64,000 nucleotides of DNA from an uncultured Candidatus Saccharibacteria bacterium. Lineage in GTDB: Bacteria > Patescibacteriota > Minisyncoccia > Phycocordibacterales > PCTT01. Below are positions 3,171-35,773 of the stretch, one piece after another. The position numbers and the translations under genes are program-made. The first letter of the stretch is position 1, and each line of letters begins with the position of its first letter. Under the pieces are notes generated by a model, which was not told the DNA's origin, ran no database searches, and saw only the letters and a list, made by a program, of their open reading frames with translations. The stretch is from assembly GCA_964566505.1 (NCBI GenBank), contig CAZMIM010000002.1:46529-110528 (forward strand). The letters run 5' to 3'.

Positions 3171-3788
3171 CTAAATACCTATCTTATTTAGTACTTTCTC
3201 ATGTGGAAACTCAAGAACATCTCGCACAAGCTTGTCATATACATTCATACGATACTGAAACTCATCAGTAGAAAATACTGCATACCTTAGCTCCTTCCCT
3301 ATCTCTGATTCTATCTTTCGAACGACCCTATCGAGAGCACCCTTCTTTATTTTGTCTCCCACAATAAGAAGGTCTACTCGTGAATCTGGAATCTGAAGAA
3401 ATACTCCTGAGATAATAACAAGCTTTGGAGCACCTGCTGGCTTAATACGGTCCAAAACCTCGAGTCTTTCATTTCGTCTTCCTTGTATAAGAAGCTTATG
3501 AAGCCCTGAAAGATACGGAAATGTTTTATCAAGCATGAAGCCATTTGTCTTTTGCTTCTTTGTTACCACTTCTTTTCCTTTCTTTTTCTTTACCTCTTTA
3601 TAAAATACCTTTGGTTTTATAAGACCAACCGATTTAAGCATGTTTACAACACGGCGTACCATATCAGTCTTCACCTGAGTTTTCTTTGAAATCATTTTGA
3701 TGTCATATGCTGTGCCCGGGTTAGACATAAAAAGTCGCATTATCTTCACTCGCGATACTCCACCAAATAGTTTTGCTAGTATTTCCAT
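3171..3788 (-). CDS. Hypothetical DNA-binding protein (winged-helix-like N-terminus, nucleotidyltransferase-like C-terminus)
   Basis: 205-aa ORF. The N-terminal segment VSRVKIMRLF...YDIKMISKKTQV looks wHTH-like, followed by a basic linker and a C-terminal DLLIVGDKI segment. This is a family-level guess only. Confidence 0.4.
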   Translation of the reverse strand: MEILAKLFGGVSRVKIMRLFMSNPGTAYDIKMISKKTQVKTDMVRRVVNMLKSVGLIKPKVFYKEVKKKKGKEVVTKKQKTNGFMLDKTFPYLSGLHKLLIQGRRNERLEVLDRIKPAGAPKLVIISGVFLQIPDSRVDLLIVGDKIKKGALDRVVRKIESEIGKELRYAVFSTDEFQYRMNVYDKLVRDVLEFPHEKVLNKIGI

Positions 3789-3912
3789 CCCGATAGTGAT
3801 AGGAACCGCTTATTAAGCGTTTCCGAAAATTAGTTTGTAAATTAAGTTTTTCATAAGACTTTAACTTATCCCGATATTTTGAGTATTCAAAAATAACTCA
3901 ATCACTATCGGG
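3789..3912 (-). promoter_or_regulatory. Structured 5' element X1: a 12-bp long-range helix whose 3' strand abuts the start codon
   Basis: CCCGATAGTGAT (3789-3800) pairs perfectly with ATCACTATCGGG (3901-3912). It encloses two hairpins and an internal near-copy, ATCCCGATA. The gene's ATG (3788) is directly adjacent. It is homologous in layout to 32930-33071. Confidence 0.45.
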
Positions 3913-3986
3913 ACCATATGTTTTGAGTATACACACGAGCACAGTGCTCTAAAAGTAGACAGCGTGTCTATATCAGTTTTTAATTC

Positions 3987-5747: not shown

Positions 5748-6554
5748 TTAACGAATTTGGTATGTAATTGTTACTGTTGAACGAATTGTATTCTCTCCAA
5801 CAGGGATATTTGCTGTCGGATAAGAAACCGCACCGTCCATCATCGCATCTCCTCCATATGCTCGTGATTCTGCATACATCACACCTGGATACCCCCTATC
5901 TTCATAAAAGCTAGCTACTCTTACAATCCTTACACCAAGATCTTTTGCAAGTCGCTTTGCTTTTTCTTCCGCATCTTCAATCGCCTGCTCTCTTGCATCC
6001 GCTTTTAGTGTGTCCTCGTCATCAATTGAGAAATTGATTCCTGAAACATTATCAGCCCCTTCATTTCCTACAAGTGATAGCAAATTACCAACCGCTTCAG
6101 TGTCTCGAACTTTTACTTGTACAGCATGATTTACCTCATATCCGCGAAGCTCTTCTCGTCCTGGCTCACATGGATATGTAATACACTGAATTCTAATGTA
6201 GTCGTATTGTGGGTAAATGTTGTAGCTAAGAGTTTTGATGTCTTTTTCTTCTACATCATTCTCTTTAAGCAAATCAAGAATTGCATTCATTTCTCTTGTA
6301 ACAACCTCTTGTGCTGAAGCAACATCCTTTGCCTCTTCTCGCACAGTGAATGTAAATGTTGCTACATCTGGAATAGCCACCACTTCCCCTTCTCCTGTAA
6401 CACTAATAGTGTTTTGATACGCAAACTCAGAACCGATAAATCGAGTCTCTTTTGCTTCATTAATAAACTTAAATAGCACAAACAACGAAAGAACAGTTAG
6501 GAGCAAAAGTCCCATGTTTACAAGCTGTTTTGTTTTATTCTCTGGAATAATCAT
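5748..6554 (-). CDS. SIMPL/DUF541-family secreted protein
   Basis: 268-aa ORF with an N-terminal TM/signal anchor and the pattern ISVTGEGEV..IPDVA.F.F.V...A.....A similar to 26-kDa periplasmic immunogenic protein-type SIMPL domains. Confidence 0.7.
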   Translation of the reverse strand: MIIPENKTKQLVNMGLLLLTVLSLFVLFKFINEAKETRFIGSEFAYQNTISVTGEGEVVAIPDVATFTFTVREEAKDVASAQEVVTREMNAILDLLKENDVEEKDIKTLSYNIYPQYDYIRIQCITYPCEPGREELRGYEVNHAVQVKVRDTEAVGNLLSLVGNEGADNVSGINFSIDDEDTLKADAREQAIEDAEEKAKRLAKDLGVRIVRVASFYEDRGYPGVMYAESRAYGGDAMMDGAVSYPTANIPVGENTIRSTVTITYQIR

Positions 6555-6644
6555 ATGTATATATGGTTATTATCTTTATAATCACCCGTAGTATAACACC
6601 CTTATATAAATAAGAAACTCTTTTGTATAAAAGGCATCTAATTG

Positions 6645-9808: not shown

Positions 9809-11788
9809 TTATCTACCAAACAATGACTTTACTACTACTTTGAAAGCATTTTCAATTGCATATACTGCTGTAGCAAATTGAGATTTCTTTTGTGTTTCTT
9901 CAACAAAACCAAAACTGCTACGAAGACCTATTGAATACTCAAGAATTTTCTCTGCATCTATTGAGTTAATCTCACCACTATCATCTACGTCTGCAACAAG
10001 TTGAGCTTTTGCCGAAAGAAGCTCTGTGCCGTTTATATGCTGTGATACAAGAGCTGCATCATGTGATGTAACGCTTCCATCAAAGTTTACATCTCCATAA
10101 ATAAGATCTCGTGCTGGTATTTGCTCCACAATACCTATTGCATGCGCATTTACAATACGTGCATCAAGCATGGTAATTCGTGTATCACGATTTACATCTG
10201 AAAGCTCTTGTTGATAATCAGTTAGTGTTGAATTACCACTGACAAAACCTGCAATAAGACCTGCGTCATACGAAGTAATTTTTCCATCAAGAGAAACATC
10301 ACCCCTAAAACTTGTTGTAACATCTCTCACAACAACATTAAGTGAGTGTCCCTTGCCTCTTACAAAAGAGTTGTCACCATAAGTTGCTTCTACAACTACA
10401 GTGTATGTGTCTTCTGGTAGATTTTCTGGAAGTTTATAAATGTACTCTCCATCATTAATAGTACCTCTAACAACTGTATATTTATTAGCTCCCCAAAGTT
10501 CAATATCAATAGAGGCATCTAGGGGAACATTGAAAGAATTCCATGCAAAACTTACCGTATGTCCAGGATAACGCTCACCCTGATGTCCACTCACCGTTAT
10601 TGAAGGTTCTCCTACCTCAGGATTAACAACATTGAGTGAATGTCCCTTACCTCTTACAAAAGAGTTGTCGCCATAAGTTGCTTCTACAACTACAGTGTAT
10701 GTATCTTCTGGTAGATTTTCTGGAATTGTGTAGTTGTATAGACCTTCATTTTTAATACCCCTAACAACCGTGTATTTATTAGCTCCCCATAGTTCAATAT
10801 CAATAGAGGCATCTGTTGGAATATTTTCTGAAGTCCACACAATACTTACATCATCTCCTGGATGTCGGTATCCCCACGCTCCGCTCACATTAATTAATGG
10901 ATCTCCTGCCTCGGGATTAACTATTTTAAGTGGATACCCACTACCCTCTACAAGAGGCTCTGTATCATATGAACCAACAAATATTGTATAGTCACCTTCT
11001 GGAATATTTTCTGGAATTGTGTAGTTATACAATCCATCATTTTCCGTGTCGCTTACTACAACAAAACCTTTTTCTTTTGAAATATAAATATCAATAGGGT
11101 TGTTTTTCGGCACACCAACTGAATCCCAAGTAATACTTACTGTATCTCCTGGATGATACTCTCCCCAAACTCCATCAACCTTTATTGATGGAGTTGATAC
11201 TGAATTATTCTTAGGATTATTTGATGTATCTGAATTATCGTAATTTCCATAGCCAATACTTCCATCTATATCATCTTTAACAATAGAAACTCCCCCTATG
11301 GTGTCACACACTCGCATCGCACCCACAACCGCACACGTTTTTATTGCGTAGGTCCCTTCCGGAACAAATACTCCAGAAGCTGTGTACCCACCGTTGTCCC
11401 ACACATAAAAGCCAGAATTTTGCATTTGTGCAATTCTGTATTGTAAAGCCCCATTTATAAGGGTTATGTCCACAAGACTATTTGCTGCTATGTCTTCTGT
11501 CTCCCATTCAAAAACTATATTCTCCCCTAGGGTAAACACATCGTTTGAACTAGGTTCTGTTAACAAAATGTCATAATCAACTCCATAGGAATTATTAGTA
11601 CTAATGTTATTTGAACCAGAATCATCTCCTAAGAGAACATTTCGTATTTGTGTAACTACTGTGGTATCTGCACCAAATGCATTAAGTAAACTTGTAATTG
11701 CATTCACCTGCGCATCAGATAATGCATATGACACTGCTGGGACAGCAAAAAATGCAATAAGCATTATTGTAAGAAAAATCTTTTTCAT
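9809..11788 (-). CDS. Secreted surface protein with three tandem ~98-aa domains and two C-terminal dockerin-type repeat pairs
   Basis: Signal peptide MKKIFLTIMLIAFFAVPAVSYA. The domain repeats contain YTVVVEATYGDNSFVRGKGHSLNVV. Dockerin-like Ca-binding loops: GDVSLDGKITSYD, DVNRDTRITMLD, GDVNFDGSVTSHD, DVDDSGEINSID. Confidence 0.75.
   Translation of the reverse strand: MKKIFLTIMLIAFFAVPAVSYALSDAQVNAITSLLNAFGADTTVVTQIRNVLLGDDSGSNNISTNNSYGVDYDILLTEPSSNDVFTLGENIVFEWETEDIAANSLVDITLINGALQYRIAQMQNSGFYVWDNGGYTASGVFVPEGTYAIKTCAVVGAMRVCDTIGGVSIVKDDIDGSIGYGNYDNSDTSNNPKNNSVSTPSIKVDGVWGEYHPGDTVSITWDSVGVPKNNPIDIYISKEKGFVVVSDTENDGLYNYTIPENIPEGDYTIFVGSYDTEPLVEGSGYPLKIVNPEAGDPLINVSGAWGYRHPGDDVSIVWTSENIPTDASIDIELWGANKYTVVRGIKNEGLYNYTIPENLPEDTYTVVVEATYGDNSFVRGKGHSLNVVNPEVGEPSITVSGHQGERYPGHTVSFAWNSFNVPLDASIDIELWGANKYTVVRGTINDGEYIYKLPENLPEDTYTVVVEATYGDNSFVRGKGHSLNVVVRDVTTSFRGDVSLDGKITSYDAGLIAGFVSGNSTLTDYQQELSDVNRDTRITMLDARIVNAHAIGIVEQIPARDLIYGDVNFDGSVTSHDAALVSQHINGTELLSAKAQLVADVDDSGEINSIDAEKILEYSIGLRSSFGFVEETQKKSQFATAVYAIENAFKVVVKSLFGR
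10331..11210 (-). repeat. Intragenic tandem repeats, period ~294 nt (three copies)
   Basis: 10331-10431 and 10625-10725 differ at only 5 positions in ~100 nt. The rest of each unit and the third unit are much more diverged. Confidence 0.75.
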
Positions 11789-30114: not shown

Positions 30115-32499
30115 CTACTCTATTTCTTTTAAGTCACCCCAGTGTGGCCCCACGCCAGCATTTGCAATAAATGTAATGCCCTCTGTGTCTTCTGTTGGAA
30201 TCACGTCCTCCATTATTTCTTTTAGTGCCTTTGCGTGCTTTTCTGCCTTTTCTGTTGGAATCTCAAAAACAAGCTCATCGTGCACCTGAAGAAGCATTTT
30301 TATTTCACCAGAAAGATCTTCTTTTTGAATATGCTCATCAATTTTTATCATTGCCCGCTTTATAATGTCTGCTTGCGTACCCTGAATTGGTGCATTTATT
30401 GCCATTCTTTCTGCTTGTGCACGCACAAATGGAAGTTTTGAATCAATTCCTTCAAAATATCTTCGTCTACCAAACAATGTTTCTGTGTATCCATTTTTAT
30501 GAGCAAATGCTTTTTGCTCATCTATAAATTTTGAAATACCAGTAAAAGTCTTGAAGTATCTGTCGTAGAAATCCCGTGCTTCTTTTTGTGTACTTCCAAT
30601 ATTTTTCTTCAAAGCATTTACACCCATCCCATAAAGAATTCCAAAGTTAATTGTTTTTGCTTTAGCACGCATTCCTTTATCAACCTCTTCAGGCGACACT
30701 CCAAACACCTCTGCAGCTACTTGTGAGTGAATATCCTCGTTGTTTTTAAATATCTCAAGAAGCTTCTCGTCTTTTGAAAGAACCGCTGCAATACGAAGCT
30801 CTATTTGAGAGTAGTCTATAGCCACCAAGCTAGATCCTTTGGGTGCAGTAAATGCATTTCTGATAATTCTTCCTTTCTCTGTACGAATTGGAATATTTTG
30901 TACATTTGGATTTTGTGATGAGAGCCTTCCTGTAGATGTTCCTGTTTGAACAAATGTAGCGTGGAGTCTGTCTTCTTCATCAAGTTGCTCGGGAAGGGTG
31001 TCTATATATGTAGAAAGTAGTTTTTGAAGCTCTCTATACTCAAGTATTTCTTTAATTATAGTGTGTTTATCAGATAGTTTTTGGAGCTCTGATTCACGTG
31101 TAGAATACGAGCCTGTAGAGGTCTTTTTTATCTTTGCATCTCCTTGTATCTGCATTTTCCCAAACAAGATTTCTCCAAGTTGTTTAGGAGAATTGAGGTT
31201 AAAAGTCTCACCTGCTTGTTTGAAAATGCTTGTTTGTATCTCGGCAAGCTCCTCATGATATTTCTTTGATATGTTTTTCAAAAAATCTTTGTCTATAAGT
31301 ACACCTTCTTTTGTCATCTTCTTTAAGATAGGTATGAGTGGCAACTCTATCTTTTCATACACATACATAAGTTGCTTTTCATGAAGCTCTTGGAGAATCT
31401 GCTCTTTTGCCTTTTTAAAGTCTCGAGTCGATGCGTAGCGTAATATGTCATCAAGTGTTGGGTTTGAGATTGTAGAATCCAAAAGCCAGAGAGCTATACC
31501 AACACGCTCAATCTCACCATCGTCTACCTTTTCTTTTATTTCGTTTAGACTTTGTTGCCTGGCTTTTCCTCTGTCCTCAAGAGAAAACATCTCCTCTACA
31601 CGAGCTCCGAGAGTTCTAAAAGTGAGCTCGTCAAAAAGGTTGAGAATATTTTCTGGAGATACTTCTTCTTTCCATTCTTTTTCTGGTAGAGAAAAATCAA
31701 CTGGTGCATCGAGACGAATTGTTGCAAGTGTTTTAGAAAAACGAGCGTCTTCTTCTCCTTCTTTTAGAAGGTTTATAATCCGTGGAGTAAGCCCCGCGCT
31801 CTTAAACGCTTCTTCGTCTTTAGCTAATTTTTTGTATATATCTTCAACAGAACCAAAAGAAGTAATAAGAGTTGTTGCTGTTTTTTCTCCAATCCCTTTA
31901 ATTCCTTTTATATTGTCTGATGGGTCACCCCGAAGACCTTTATAGTCAGGAAGAAGTTCAGGCCCAAAAGAAAATCTCTCTTCTACCGCATCTTCGTTGT
32001 ATATGATTGTGTCTTTTATGCCTCGTTTGAGAGTGTAAACACGCACCCTATCCCCTTTTACAAGCTGTAGTGTGTCCATATCACCTGAAGCAATCACCAC
32101 ATCGTGTTCTGTGTTGTTATGCAAATCATTTGCAATCGTCCCTAAAACATCATCTGCTTCAAAACCTTCTGCTTCATATATAGGAATAGAAAATGCCTCG
32201 AAAAGGTCTCTAGAACGATCTATTTGTGTCACCAAGGCGTCGTCTGTTTCTTTTCTGCCCGCTTTATATTCTTCATAAACTTCGTGCCTGTGTGTTGGAC
32301 CTTTTAGATCAAAGGTTGCAATAATATAGTCAGGCTTTAGCTCACCAATAATTTTAATAAGCATTGTTGAAAGCCCAAAAAGCGCACCTGTTGGCTCTCC
32401 TGTGTTTGAAACAAAGTCAGGAAGTGCGTGGTATGCACGATGAATGATTGCGTGTGTGTCTAAAATAACTATTGTTTTTTTCTCTTTCTTTTTAGCCAT
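30115..32499 (-). CDS. polA: DNA polymerase I (5' nuclease plus family A polymerase domain)
   Basis: 5'-nuclease motifs (ILDTHAIIHRAYHAL, GIKGIGEKTA) and Pol A motifs (DYSQIELRI, RAKAKTINFGILYGMG, QVHDELVFE). The start is placed at MAKKKEKK. Confidence 0.92.
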   Translation of the reverse strand: MAKKKEKKTIVILDTHAIIHRAYHALPDFVSNTGEPTGALFGLSTMLIKIIGELKPDYIIATFDLKGPTHRHEVYEEYKAGRKETDDALVTQIDRSRDLFEAFSIPIYEAEGFEADDVLGTIANDLHNNTEHDVVIASGDMDTLQLVKGDRVRVYTLKRGIKDTIIYNEDAVEERFSFGPELLPDYKGLRGDPSDNIKGIKGIGEKTATTLITSFGSVEDIYKKLAKDEEAFKSAGLTPRIINLLKEGEEDARFSKTLATIRLDAPVDFSLPEKEWKEEVSPENILNLFDELTFRTLGARVEEMFSLEDRGKARQQSLNEIKEKVDDGEIERVGIALWLLDSTISNPTLDDILRYASTRDFKKAKEQILQELHEKQLMYVYEKIELPLIPILKKMTKEGVLIDKDFLKNISKKYHEELAEIQTSIFKQAGETFNLNSPKQLGEILFGKMQIQGDAKIKKTSTGSYSTRESELQKLSDKHTIIKEILEYRELQKLLSTYIDTLPEQLDEEDRLHATFVQTGTSTGRLSSQNPNVQNIPIRTEKGRIIRNAFTAPKGSSLVAIDYSQIELRIAAVLSKDEKLLEIFKNNEDIHSQVAAEVFGVSPEEVDKGMRAKAKTINFGILYGMGVNALKKNIGSTQKEARDFYDRYFKTFTGISKFIDEQKAFAHKNGYTETLFGRRRYFEGIDSKLPFVRAQAERMAINAPIQGTQADIIKRAMIKIDEHIQKEDLSGEIKMLLQVHDELVFEIPTEKAEKHAKALKEIMEDVIPTEDTEGITFIANAGVGPHWGDLKEIE

Positions 32500-32929
32500 T
32501 GTGTGTATATGTAATTTCGCGTGCTGTTTCATTTAAATGAGCAAAAGAAAGACAGTGCGCATTCTCTGGTATTGCATCTTTTATCTTTTCTGGCCATTCA
32601 ATAAATATAATTGTTTTGGAATCTAGTAATAATTTATCCCAACCAAGACTTTTGATGTCTTCTGAGTCCTCAAGACGATAAGCGTCTATGTGAACAAGCT
32701 TGTCAAAAGGCTTGTTTGTGAGAGGGTATGTTTTTTGTATTACAAATGTGGGGCTTGTTATAGGTTCTTTGATACCAAAATATGTTCCCACGGATTGAGT
32801 AAAAGTAGTTTTTCCTGAGCCTAAATCACCTGAAAGCGCTACAACAGTTGCACCCTCTTTTGGCTGTAGTTTTTCACAAAAATCTTGTGCAAATTCTTCT
32901 ATATCCTCTCGTTCTATCACCTTTTTCAT
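32492..32929 (-). CDS. tsaE: tRNA t6A biosynthesis ATPase TsaE (YjeE)
   Basis: GDLGSGKTTFTQ P-loop, SPTF, and HIDAYRL. 145 aa. Confidence 0.85.
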   Translation of the reverse strand: MKKVIEREDIEEFAQDFCEKLQPKEGATVVALSGDLGSGKTTFTQSVGTYFGIKEPITSPTFVIQKTYPLTNKPFDKLVHIDAYRLEDSEDIKSLGWDKLLLDSKTIIFIEWPEKIKDAIPENAHCLSFAHLNETAREITYTHNG

Positions 32930-33071
32930 CCCGTAGTAAAAAATTAGTTTGATTAATTAGACAAGTTGGTTTCGACACAACCAAGTCTATCTCTCATTTC
33001 CCGTAAGTATGTCTAATTAATCTCTGTTGAAGTAGTTAGCACTACTTCAACGAACTAATTTATACTACGGG
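32930..33071 (-). promoter_or_regulatory. Structured 5' element X2: three-way junction whose outer helix abuts the tsaE start codon
   Basis: P1 is CCCGTAGTA..AAATTAGTT (32930-32949) with AACTAATTT.TACTACGGG (33053-33071). P2 is a perfect 13 bp, GATTAATTAGACA/TGTCTAATTAATC. P3 is a perfect 10 bp, GTTGAAGTAG/CTACTTCAAC. There is an internal near-copy, CCCGTAAGTA. Confidence 0.5.
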
Positions 33072-33099
33072 ATTCATACATAAATAGTACCACGAAAAG

Positions 33100-33135
33100 A
33101 AAAAAGGCCGACGAAATTGGATTTCGTCGGCCTTT
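33100..33135 (-). terminator. Intrinsic terminator of the lipoprotein gene
   Basis: Minus strand AAAGGCCGACGAAAT-CCAA-TTTCGTCGGCC followed by TTTTTTC. Confidence 0.7.
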
Positions 33136-33152
33136 CATGGTTTCTTCTACTA

Positions 33153-33587
33153 CTAGTAAGGCGTGACCTTAACTCCCAGCAGACCGTTGTAGTGGCGATA
33201 AACGCTCACATCAACCATTGCGCACCCTGAATTTCTGTCGAAGCGGCTTGCTTTAACAGATACAGGATCGGCGCGGACAGTTCGATTTTCCGAATCAATG
33301 AGATTCACATAGACATTCACTCGCGCGTCTGCTATGTACCTCCCATATTCATCAGAGAGCCTGTCTCTGTCGATGGTATGGCGTGAGTAACCAAGATACG
33401 GCACATTGACAAAATTGTCCTCCTGGCCGGTCTTGGCACGAACTGTCATCCCTTCCTCGGTTGAGTTGAAGACTTCTACGCACCCAGCGTAATGGGCGTC
33501 GAAATATCCCCCTTCTTCAGTGAGAGAGTCAACGACACCGCACCCTGTCAAAAACACAACAGAGCAGATCAAGAAAATACGTTTCAT
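33153..33587 (-). CDS. Lipoprotein of unknown function; compositionally GC-rich
   Basis: MKRIFLICSVVFLTGC is a lipobox (L-T-G-C). The start is placed at this Met. A TTGACA-18-TATAAT promoter lies upstream. G+C is visibly higher than in the neighbours. Confidence 0.6.
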   Translation of the reverse strand: MKRIFLICSVVFLTGCGVVDSLTEEGGYFDAHYAGCVEVFNSTEEGMTVRAKTGQEDNFVNVPYLGYSRHTIDRDRLSDEYGRYIADARVNVYVNLIDSENRTVRADPVSVKASRFDRNSGCAMVDVSVYRHYNGLLGVKVTPY

Positions 33588-33716
33588 CGTATTATGCTCT
33601 AAAGAGCGGTTGGTGATACTTCTATATATATTATACCATTTTATATACCTATTTGTCAAGAACGACTATATAGCTTCTATCCCCTATTTAAGCCACATAA
33701 TCCACTTGGCTAATGT

Positions 33717-35410: not shown

Positions 35411-35543
35411 GGCTTGTTTGACATAGCCGAGTCACAATTTTGTGCTGGTTGTTTGTCGTGGTCTTTCAATTACTTGTGTGTATAATCGAATACAGAGAAA
35501 CAAAACAAAAAACACCCGCGTTAACGGATGTTTGTTCCTTCAA

Positions 35544-35686
35544 TCGAACACATAAACCTCTAAGTAATGCTAGATGCAAGAAATAGCCCTATGTTTTCTA
35601 AGGATAGAGTCAGTTTATATATAAAAAATATACATACCCAATTCGTCCTCGAAAGCCATAAATTACTTAGAGGTTTATATGTTTGA
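35544..35686. repeat. 143-nt element closed by a 25-bp inverted repeat (structured RNA or miniature inverted-repeat element)
   Basis: TCGAACACATAAACCTCTAAGTAAT (35544-35568) pairs with ATTACTTAGAGGTTTATATGTTTGA (35662-35686). There are 23 Watson-Crick pairs, including an uninterrupted 15 bp. Confidence 0.4.
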
Positions 35687-35773
35687 TTTTCAAAATATCT
35701 CTCAACAAAAGCGTTTTATTGCTGTTGCAGATCTCACAAGAAATCGGGTAAAGTTTAGCATAAAATAGATATC

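Follow-up and report, generated by a model that had tools for sequence, protein, structure and literature searches.

Here we describe two short inverted-repeat elements, e1 and e2, that stand directly against the start codons of tsaE and of p205, a gene without known function, in a 64-kb window (the whole stretch of DNA analysed) of a bacterium that the source taxonomy of p205 homologues places among the Patescibacteria/Paceibacteria. We conclude that they are probably MITE-like non-coding insertions at start codons, transcribed as a two-state structured leader. Comparison of the known copies also makes selection at the RNA level possible.

The tsaE locus comprises the following features, with structural elements placed by the computed fold.
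32492..32929, minus strand: tsaE (Pfam TsaE, 1e-33)
32925..32929, minus strand: direct repeat copy 1, ATGAA, the working tsaE start
32930..33071, minus strand: element e1, 142 nt, CCCGTAGTA...TACTACGGG, in mRNA sense directly 5' of the tsaE ATG
32930..32949, minus strand: 3' strand of helix P1, its last base adjoining the tsaE AUG
32940..32959, minus strand: block common with e2, plus strand AAAATTAGTTTG..AATTA, in mRNA sense UAAUU..CAAACUAAUUUU
32951..33022, minus strand: helix P2, a perfect 13 bp (32951-32963 with 33010-33022)
33000..33009, minus strand: decoy within the element (CCCGTAAGTA; mRNA sense UACUUACGGG) that nearly repeats the 3' strand of P1
33026..33051, minus strand: hairpin P3, 11 bp with a 4-nt loop
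33053..33071, minus strand: 5' strand of P1 in mRNA sense
33073..33077, minus strand: direct repeat copy 2, ATGAA, 6 nt past TACTAT, opening the mini-ORF MNPVV*
33084..33089, minus strand: -10-like box TACTAT, the presumed leaderless tsaE promoter (from sequence, the boxes of relatives and a positional peak)
33102..33136, minus strand: intrinsic terminator of the upstream lipoprotein-like gene (terminator scan)

The first-pass annotation had described e1 as three helices, the outermost ending at the tsaE AUG, and folding recovers P1 and P2 with the lengths it gave and the end of P1 at the AUG; P3, put there at 10 bp, has 11. P1 is made up of 9 bp (32930-32938 with 33063-33071) and a further 9 bp (32941-32949 with 33053-33061), and it reaches 2 bp into the tsaE AUG, whose A and U pair with the AU of the upstream ATGAAT, bringing it to about 21 bp when this extension is counted. 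The terminal inverted repeats (CCCGTAGTA / TACTACGGG) are perfect over 9 nt, P2 encloses a further 6-bp hairpin (32966-32984), and a self-palindrome spans 33000-33072. The mRNA-sense (minus) strand of e1 folds at -53.4 kcal/mol, compared with -24.4 +/- 3.2 kcal/mol for 200 shuffles (z -9.0; none as good), and the plus strand is about equally stable. The start codon itself (ATG, 32929-32927) aligns with Met1 in eight homologues, the closest TsaE proteins being only 53-55% identical to that of the window.

Several observations concern the neighbouring genes. The tsaE and polA reading frames overlap by 41 nt (window 32492-32532), the 805-aa PolA has no 3'-5' exonuclease domain by Pfam, and the holA-like gene matches the C-terminal delta-subunit domain only, just under the Pfam cut-off. 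Upstream of e1, the ORF at 33153-33659, listed with a TTG start, more likely starts at MKRIFLICSVVFLTGC, which encodes a lipoprotein signal with lipobox; the gene in this position is a different one in each relative.

The p205 locus is laid out in the same manner.
3171..3788, minus strand: p205, 205 aa, a Paceibacteria protein without known function, with a possible N-terminal winged helix
3785..3788, minus strand: direct repeat copy 1, ATGG, the working p205 start
3789..3912, minus strand: element e2, 124 nt, CCCGATAGTGAT...ATCACTATCGGG, directly 5' of the p205 ATG
3802..3824, minus strand: hairpin GGAAACGCUUAAUAAGCGGUUCC, just ahead of the 3' arm
3826..3844, minus strand: block common with e1, the shared AAAATTAGTTTG block
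3870..3876, minus strand: internal decoy, UAUCGGG in mRNA sense, closing a 43-nt 5' hairpin with the 5' arm
3914..3917, minus strand: direct repeat copy 2, ATGG, 8 nt past TATACT, opening an 18-codon mini-ORF
3926..3931, minus strand: -10 box TATACT of the p205 promoter (TTTAGA-16-TATACT)

The arms of e2 are perfect over 12 nt and its fold lies at z -4.8 relative to shuffles, with a closing helix around several small hairpins, a diffuse ensemble and no clean three-way junction. A second element of the same layout as e1 had been proposed at 3789-3912 in the first-pass annotation; the shared 12-mer block is indeed present, the junction is not, and the contact of e2 with a start codon had gone unmentioned. 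The p205 family is conserved in Paceibacteria and Campbellbacteria, with homologues mostly of 205 aa and 100% query coverage.

The ends of e1 and e2 are near-identical, reading CCCG(A)TAGT... and ...ACTA(T)CGGG. The 12-mer AAAATTAGTTTG occurs exactly twice in the window, once in each element, and a common 12-mer is rarely expected (8 of 5000 shuffles, p about 0.002). The two elements face the same way relative to their genes, and each contains a decoy. Global alignment of e1 with e2 and with the two copies found in relatives (at L064 and L068, below) yields no significant similarity, and the link between e1 and e2 consists only of the near-identical ends, the exact 12-mer, the orientation and the overall design. 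A scan of the 64-kb window for CCCG...CGGG pairs with extended arms returns e1 and e2 only, making two copies in 64 kb and four known in all.

The evidence for insertion comes from promoters, direct repeats and empty sites. The order at tsaE is TACTAT, 6 nt, ATGAA, T, e1 and ATGAA (the tsaE start), and at p205 it is TATACT, 8 nt, ATGG, T, e2 and ATGG (the p205 start), with inserted lengths of 143 nt and 125 nt, respectively, each including one extra T. Removing the element with one repeat leaves TACTAT-N6-ATG in the first case and TATACT-N8-ATGG in the second. Orthologous loci, obtained via homologous proteins, include empty versions of both sites. The tsaE site is empty in L019, L020 and L022, where the order ruvB-pilB-x-tsaE-polA-holA is kept and tsaE is preceded by a terminator, a -10-like box (TATACT, TAGCAT or TATGCT) and 6-11 nt before the ATG; the p205 site is empty in L071 (TATACT-N8-ATGG) and L067 (TATACT-N9-ATGG). 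Since what is left after such a removal has exactly the arrangement of the empty sites, we take e1 and e2, from sequence, to have inserted at the start codons of leaderless-type genes; the direct repeats on either side measure 4-5 bp and contain the ATG.

Judging by the -10-like boxes 6-11 nt upstream at the empty sites, both tsaE and p205 look leaderless, and the TATACT box of p205 is also present in L064, L065, L067, L068 and L071. A promoter scan found no full sigma-70 consensus at e1. Across the window, -10-like hexamers peak 6-8 nt ahead of the start codon (10 of 63 genes, ~16%), and Shine-Dalgarno-like motifs are rare upstream of the 63 ORFs; the organism appears to use leaderless and Shine-Dalgarno-independent initiation.

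A separate motif, (TTTT)TGTCTACT, lies 22-25 nt upstream of the p205 TATACT box in six of six genomes, at the following positions.
(TTTT)TGTCTACT motif: window about 3954-3961; L064 54-65; L067 7214-7225; L068 9712-9723; L071 685-696; L065 9750-9761
Too distant for a standard -35, it may instead serve as an operator or as a promoter element of unusual kind.

Two further copies occupy the p205 site in distant relatives.
L064 110-231: element at the p205 site; p205 68% identical
L068 9824-9940: element at the p205 site; the same in L069 and L070
The L064 locus reads TATACT-N10-ATGAAT-CCCGTACG...GTAGCGGG-ATGGAA, and L068, L069 and L070 read ...ACGGAT-CTCGTTAGAAG...CTATTTCTAAACGGG-ATGGAT, with a p205 58-60% identical to that of the window. 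The latter three are independent assemblies that are identical across the leader and show no polymorphism there. The similarity of e2 to the L064 element is significant (z 4.2 overall, 5.8 for the 3' half) and to that of L068 marginal (z 2.6); the four copies align poorly in the interior, and neither interior nor junction is conserved among them. The arms at L064 and L068 are imperfect, and in e2 as in these two copies the closing helix measures 14-20 bp and is interrupted by bulges. The direct repeats differ at L064 (ATGAA upstream vs ATGGA downstream) and at L068 (ACGGA vs ATGGA). Since e1 and L064 have ATGAATCCCGTA in common and the L064 repeats mismatch, the upstream ATG (ATGAAT) may belong to the element and not to a duplication.

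Presence of the element in the window, L064 and L068 is compatible with one old gain followed by vertical descent and equally with repeated insertion; identities of p205 group the loci as (L067, L071) and (L065, L068). At L065 the p205 site holds, in place of the CCCG-type element, a different inverted-repeat insert of 230 nt with TAGGG-type arms. The relatives, but not the window, have several hairpins with arms of the form TAGGG(N1-2)TAGGG, one of which lies between the p205 promoter and the AUG.
TAGGG(N1-2)TAGGG-arm hairpins: L064 3-14; L065 7273-7284 and 9797-9807; L068 9755-9766
The gap between the p205 promoter and the AUG seems to be an insertion hot spot.

Public gene calls place the start of p205 differently between genomes. 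In the window genome and in L068 (p205 at 9941-10558), both with the element against the true ATG, p205 is called from Met21 (185 aa; P0122, P0132). In L064, which has the element, and in all element-free genomes the call begins with Met1 of the full-length protein or a few codons before it. The element misleads annotation: p205 is miscalled at Met21 in two of the three element-bearing genomes.

Folding of growing transcripts points to a leader with two states. An internal near-copy in e1 (CCCGTAAGTA, 33000-33009) had been proposed to compete for the same partner as the arm it resembles, and prefix folds agree: the 5' arm pairs there first, forming a 72-nt 5' hairpin of -31.7 kcal/mol. The 5' arm of e2 likewise pairs first with 3870-3876 (-17.9 kcal/mol), and that of L064 lies first in a small hairpin (-5.5 kcal/mol). 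Once the last 10-20 nt are made, the minimum-energy fold flips to the closing helix, at -57.5 (e1), -38.7 (e2) and -34.8 kcal/mol (L064), and in the full-length fold the A and the U of the start codon lie paired within this helix. A decoy of the 3' arm is found in three of the four copies (e1, e2 and L064). By equilibrium pairedness of the start region, p205 ranks first and tsaE seventh among 63 genes. Three of the four copies also have a mini-ORF that overlaps the 5' arm and opens on a predicted 5'-terminal AUG (MNPVV in e1, 18 codons in e2, 20 codons in L064), with peptides and frames that are not conserved among copies.

From these folds we infer a leader with two states: one open and favoured kinetically, which would leave the AUG and the AU-rich block free, and one closed and stable. 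The native promoter would now start the transcript at or near the upstream ATG copy, and the whole element would therefore form the 5' leader of the mRNA. While the RNA is being made, its 5' arm would first be caught by the internal decoy in a local hairpin, and the real AUG, behind the AU-rich stretch CAAACUAAUUUU, would emerge unpaired and be usable in a largely Shine-Dalgarno-free organism. At equilibrium the RNA would refold to the far stabler closing helix, with the A and U of the AUG paired and initiation off. A ribosome on the 5' AUG mini-ORF would cover the 5' arm, and the helix might be held open in this way too.

Small inverted-repeat mobile elements had been offered in the first-pass annotation as an alternative to a regulatory RNA, and it is this alternative that fits best. 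The elements are 142 and 124 nt long and encode no transposase, holding only non-conserved mini-ORFs (5, 18 and 20 codons, counting L064); they have terminal inverted repeats (9 nt in e1, 12 nt in e2) and direct repeats, and both the tsaE and the p205 site exist in filled and empty form. As regards a parent insertion sequence or transposase, the ends of e1 and e2 were not found again in the 64-kb window apart from a solo 12-nt match at 6585. The random position and orientation expected of a MITE are at odds with the known copies, all four of which lie at a start codon in the same orientation. Such uniformity is not expected of a random transposon, unless ATGR is what it targets or insertions elsewhere are lost to selection.

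Prokaryotic MITEs lie between genes, are AT-rich, have direct repeats on either side and yield transcripts with stable stem-loops (PMC10969869), and the nearest known kind is, by analogy, the bacterial MITE, especially the Correia elements (CREE) of Neisseria. Correia elements are transcribed together with the adjacent gene; they fold, are bound by RNase III and change expression (PMC2649163; reviews PMC10969869, PMC3184786). Like e1 and e2, they are intergenic, about 100-155 bp long and bounded by terminal inverted repeats. They duplicate a short target, as e1 and e2 may have done, and their co-transcription, which e1 and e2 would share, gives a long-hairpin transcript that affects expression (PMC2649163, PMC10969869). 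The target duplicated by CREE, however, is TA; their repeats measure 26 bp, their copies number in the hundreds and promoters can arise at their ends, whereas e1 and e2 have a repeat, ATGR(A), that is the start codon, arms of 9-12 nt and no evident outward promoter, and only four copies are known, all abutting an AUG in one orientation. Compared with MITEs generally, the elements stand apart in their leaderless-type targets, their built-in decoy and their persistence at one site across deep divergence. The Rickettsia palindromic elements (RPE) are similar in being small palindromic mobile inserts at highly constrained positions (PMC10969869). They are inserted in frame inside genes and translated, whereas e1 and e2 lie immediately outside the reading frame, whose start codon they regenerate; in both cases the insert would be tolerated because of its placement relative to the reading frame.

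Parallels for the proposed switch come from RNAs of other kinds. In hok mRNA, of the hok/sok system of plasmid R1, long-range pairing between the 5' and 3' ends locks translation off, and a local co-transcriptional hairpin competes for the same strand, giving kinetic and thermodynamic states. The elements are likewise predicted to have a kinetic and a thermodynamic fold and a long-range lock; in hok, however, the partner is the mRNA 3' end, activation requires 3' trimming, and the metastable hairpins keep translation off, whereas those of the elements would keep it on, and no toxin gene is present at the elements. Bypassing elements (T4 gene 60, and the 'byps' of Magnusiomyces mitochondria) are compact structured inserts between identical codons, and byps are mobile; bypassing occurs in elongation, with peptidyl-tRNA and a take-off stop codon. 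The helix of e1 or e2 would similarly bring AUG and AUG side by side, but the matching codon here is the initiator and there is no evidence for hopping.

The strongest competing explanation, which we regard as a tentative second to MITE-like insertion, is that the elements are, whatever their origin, selected cis-regulatory leaders, with the closing helix acting as a start-codon clamp that selection maintains. In its more explicit version, translation from the real AUG would be tied to leaderless initiation at the 5' AUG mini-ORF or to how long the decoy hairpin lasts, and output would track the translation state of the cell. Several points from the comparison between copies are in keeping with this. 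The element is present at the same p205 site although the p205 proteins are only 58-68% identical, in a pattern that fits one ancient gain and vertical descent, and closing helices of differing sequence (those of L064 and L068 included) all stop at CGGG|AUG. The hairpin at 3802-3824 retains its outer stem in L064 (GGAAAC/GGUUCC), with the inner stem altered compensatorily (CACC/GGUG). The mRNA strand folds ~6 kcal/mol better than its complement at L064 (-33.7 vs -27.6) and L068 (-23.5 vs -17.5), and the helices there carry G.U pairs and no A.C, a pairing that works in the mRNA strand only. The recurrence of the decoy and of the 5' AUG, each in three of the four copies, points the same way. Against this, there are four sequences only, the arms of transposons covary between subfamilies too, and e1 and e2 have no strand asymmetry in folding; L068 has ACG in place of the 5' AUG and an extra hairpin upstream, the mini-ORFs lack conservation in peptide and frame, the close relatives L067 and L071 do without the element, and tsaE and p205 have no obvious functional link.

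Doubtful, though worth stating, is the idea of a mobile structured leader specialised for leaderless genes and under RNA-level selection across Paceibacteria. Such an element would insert at +1/ATG and bring or duplicate a 5'-terminal AUG, by which 70S leaderless initiation would be kept; its helix would clamp the real AUG, and unmasking would be coupled to translation of the mini-ORF or to the co-transcriptional decoy.

It is improbable that the closing helix is instead a processing site, cut for example by RNase III in the manner of Correia elements, with the leader trimmed to a near-leaderless mRNA. The length of P1 in e1 (about 21 bp with its 2-bp extension), the exact end of the helix at the AUG in four of four copies, the retention of RNase III by CPR bacteria (PMC12641178) and the binding of RNase III by CREE, which it cleaves or protects (PMC2649163), would all suit it. 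RNase III cuts within helices and not at their foot, however, and the closing helices of e2, L064 and L068 reach only 14-20 bp and are bulged.

The first-pass annotation had also raised a riboswitch- or thermosensor-like alternative pairing, and a metabolite riboswitch or RNA thermometer controlling tsaE-polA now seems very unlikely. Like the leaders of that kind, e1 is a structured 5' leader, here a three-way junction, with alternative pairings that touch a partly paired start codon. Yet no Rfam match for the elements was obtained at the gathering score or at E <= 10, a conserved ligand pocket is lacking, and junction and interior are unconserved between e1, e2, L064 and L068. In addition, e2 and L068 are not three-way junctions, tsaE does without the element in three relatives, and for a thermometer there is no Shine-Dalgarno sequence to mask and the perfect helices (9-13 bp), at -53 to -57 kcal/mol, are far above the thermometer range and too stable to melt at physiological temperature. 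Least credible of all is a DNA-level palindrome for protein binding or recombination, neither mobile nor acting as RNA (for instance an operator for the winged-helix-like p205), for which the perfect palindromic arms adjoining promoters and the weak ArsR/CzrA-like match of the p205 N-terminus (E 0.34, not significant) could be cited, but the arms lie 100-130 bp apart and downstream of the -10 box, the diverged copies pair through G.U, meaningless in duplex DNA, and the insertion with its direct repeats goes unexplained.

Wider searches bear on the number of copies. Sensitive blastn returned no further copies of e1 or e2 in the window or in relatives, and a relaxed CYCG...CGRG helix scan of 243 kb gave noise only apart from the four copies. 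The pattern CCCGN{5,35}AAAATTAGTTTGN{2,3}AATTA, run against 185,579 species genomes, JGI metagenomes and IMG/VR, none of which includes the source genome, matched 18 times in genome_contigs, 41 times in metagenome_contigs and twice in viral_contigs; these numbers are close to the chance prediction, and no match has a terminal repeat. Two Patescibacteria genome hits (L002 and L009) were inspected and lie in apparently ordinary coding sequence; given this and the lack of a terminal repeat, all matches to the pattern are taken as chance. Matches to ATGAATCCCGTAN{90,120}CGGGATG in viral contigs are GC-rich, unlike the AT-rich elements, and were set aside as chance, and no p205 relatives were found in IMG/VR.

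Other candidate identities were considered and rejected. A hammerhead or other self-cleaving ribozyme and a tRNA-like element have no Rfam match and their core motifs are absent. An element-borne outward promoter, which would bring back a leaderless start, should show as a TAnnnT conserved in its spacing to the AUG, and the four copies have none, and an IHF site in the shared block comes down to an off-register near-match in e1. The terminator scan finds only the terminator at 33102-33136 and none within e1 or e2, which argues against an intrinsic terminator or attenuator. An IS200/IS605-derived PATE was rejected as the ends are true inverted repeats and the 5' and 3' subterminal hairpins are unrelated. 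Related elements occur in independent assemblies from Logan, ENA and JGI, which speaks against an assembly artefact.

The window and its relatives contain other repeats of interest. At 6585-6596, in a divergent intergenic region, the left end of e1 in mRNA sense (CCCGTAGTATAA) recurs on its own as an exact 12-nt match, and the minus strand there reads TATACTACGGG, a -10-like box ~35 nt ahead of the gene at 5748-6554. The match could be left over from a lost copy or be due to chance (BLAST E 16). A different inverted-repeat element of 147 nt, at 35542-35688 between the end of pilB and the ruvB promoter, has 27-nt arms of 93% complementarity (AATCGAACACATAAACCTCTAAGTAAT / ATTACTTAGAGGTTTATATGTTTGATT) and looks like a second MITE-like family. 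At L068 450-700 there are GC-rich intergenic nested palindromes, one of them 79 nt long with perfect 14-nt arms (CCCGCAAAAAATGT...ACATTTTTTGCGGG).

Gene expression in CPR/Patescibacteria is almost unstudied, and the window suggests few Shine-Dalgarno sites and many leaderless genes. MITE-like insertion of the kind proposed here would have taken place on the very start codon of essential-pathway genes (tsaE-polA-holA), regenerating the codon and adding a 125-145-nt bistable leader. This raises the question of how leaderless genes tolerate or use such structures, and whether small mobile elements can seed new translational control.
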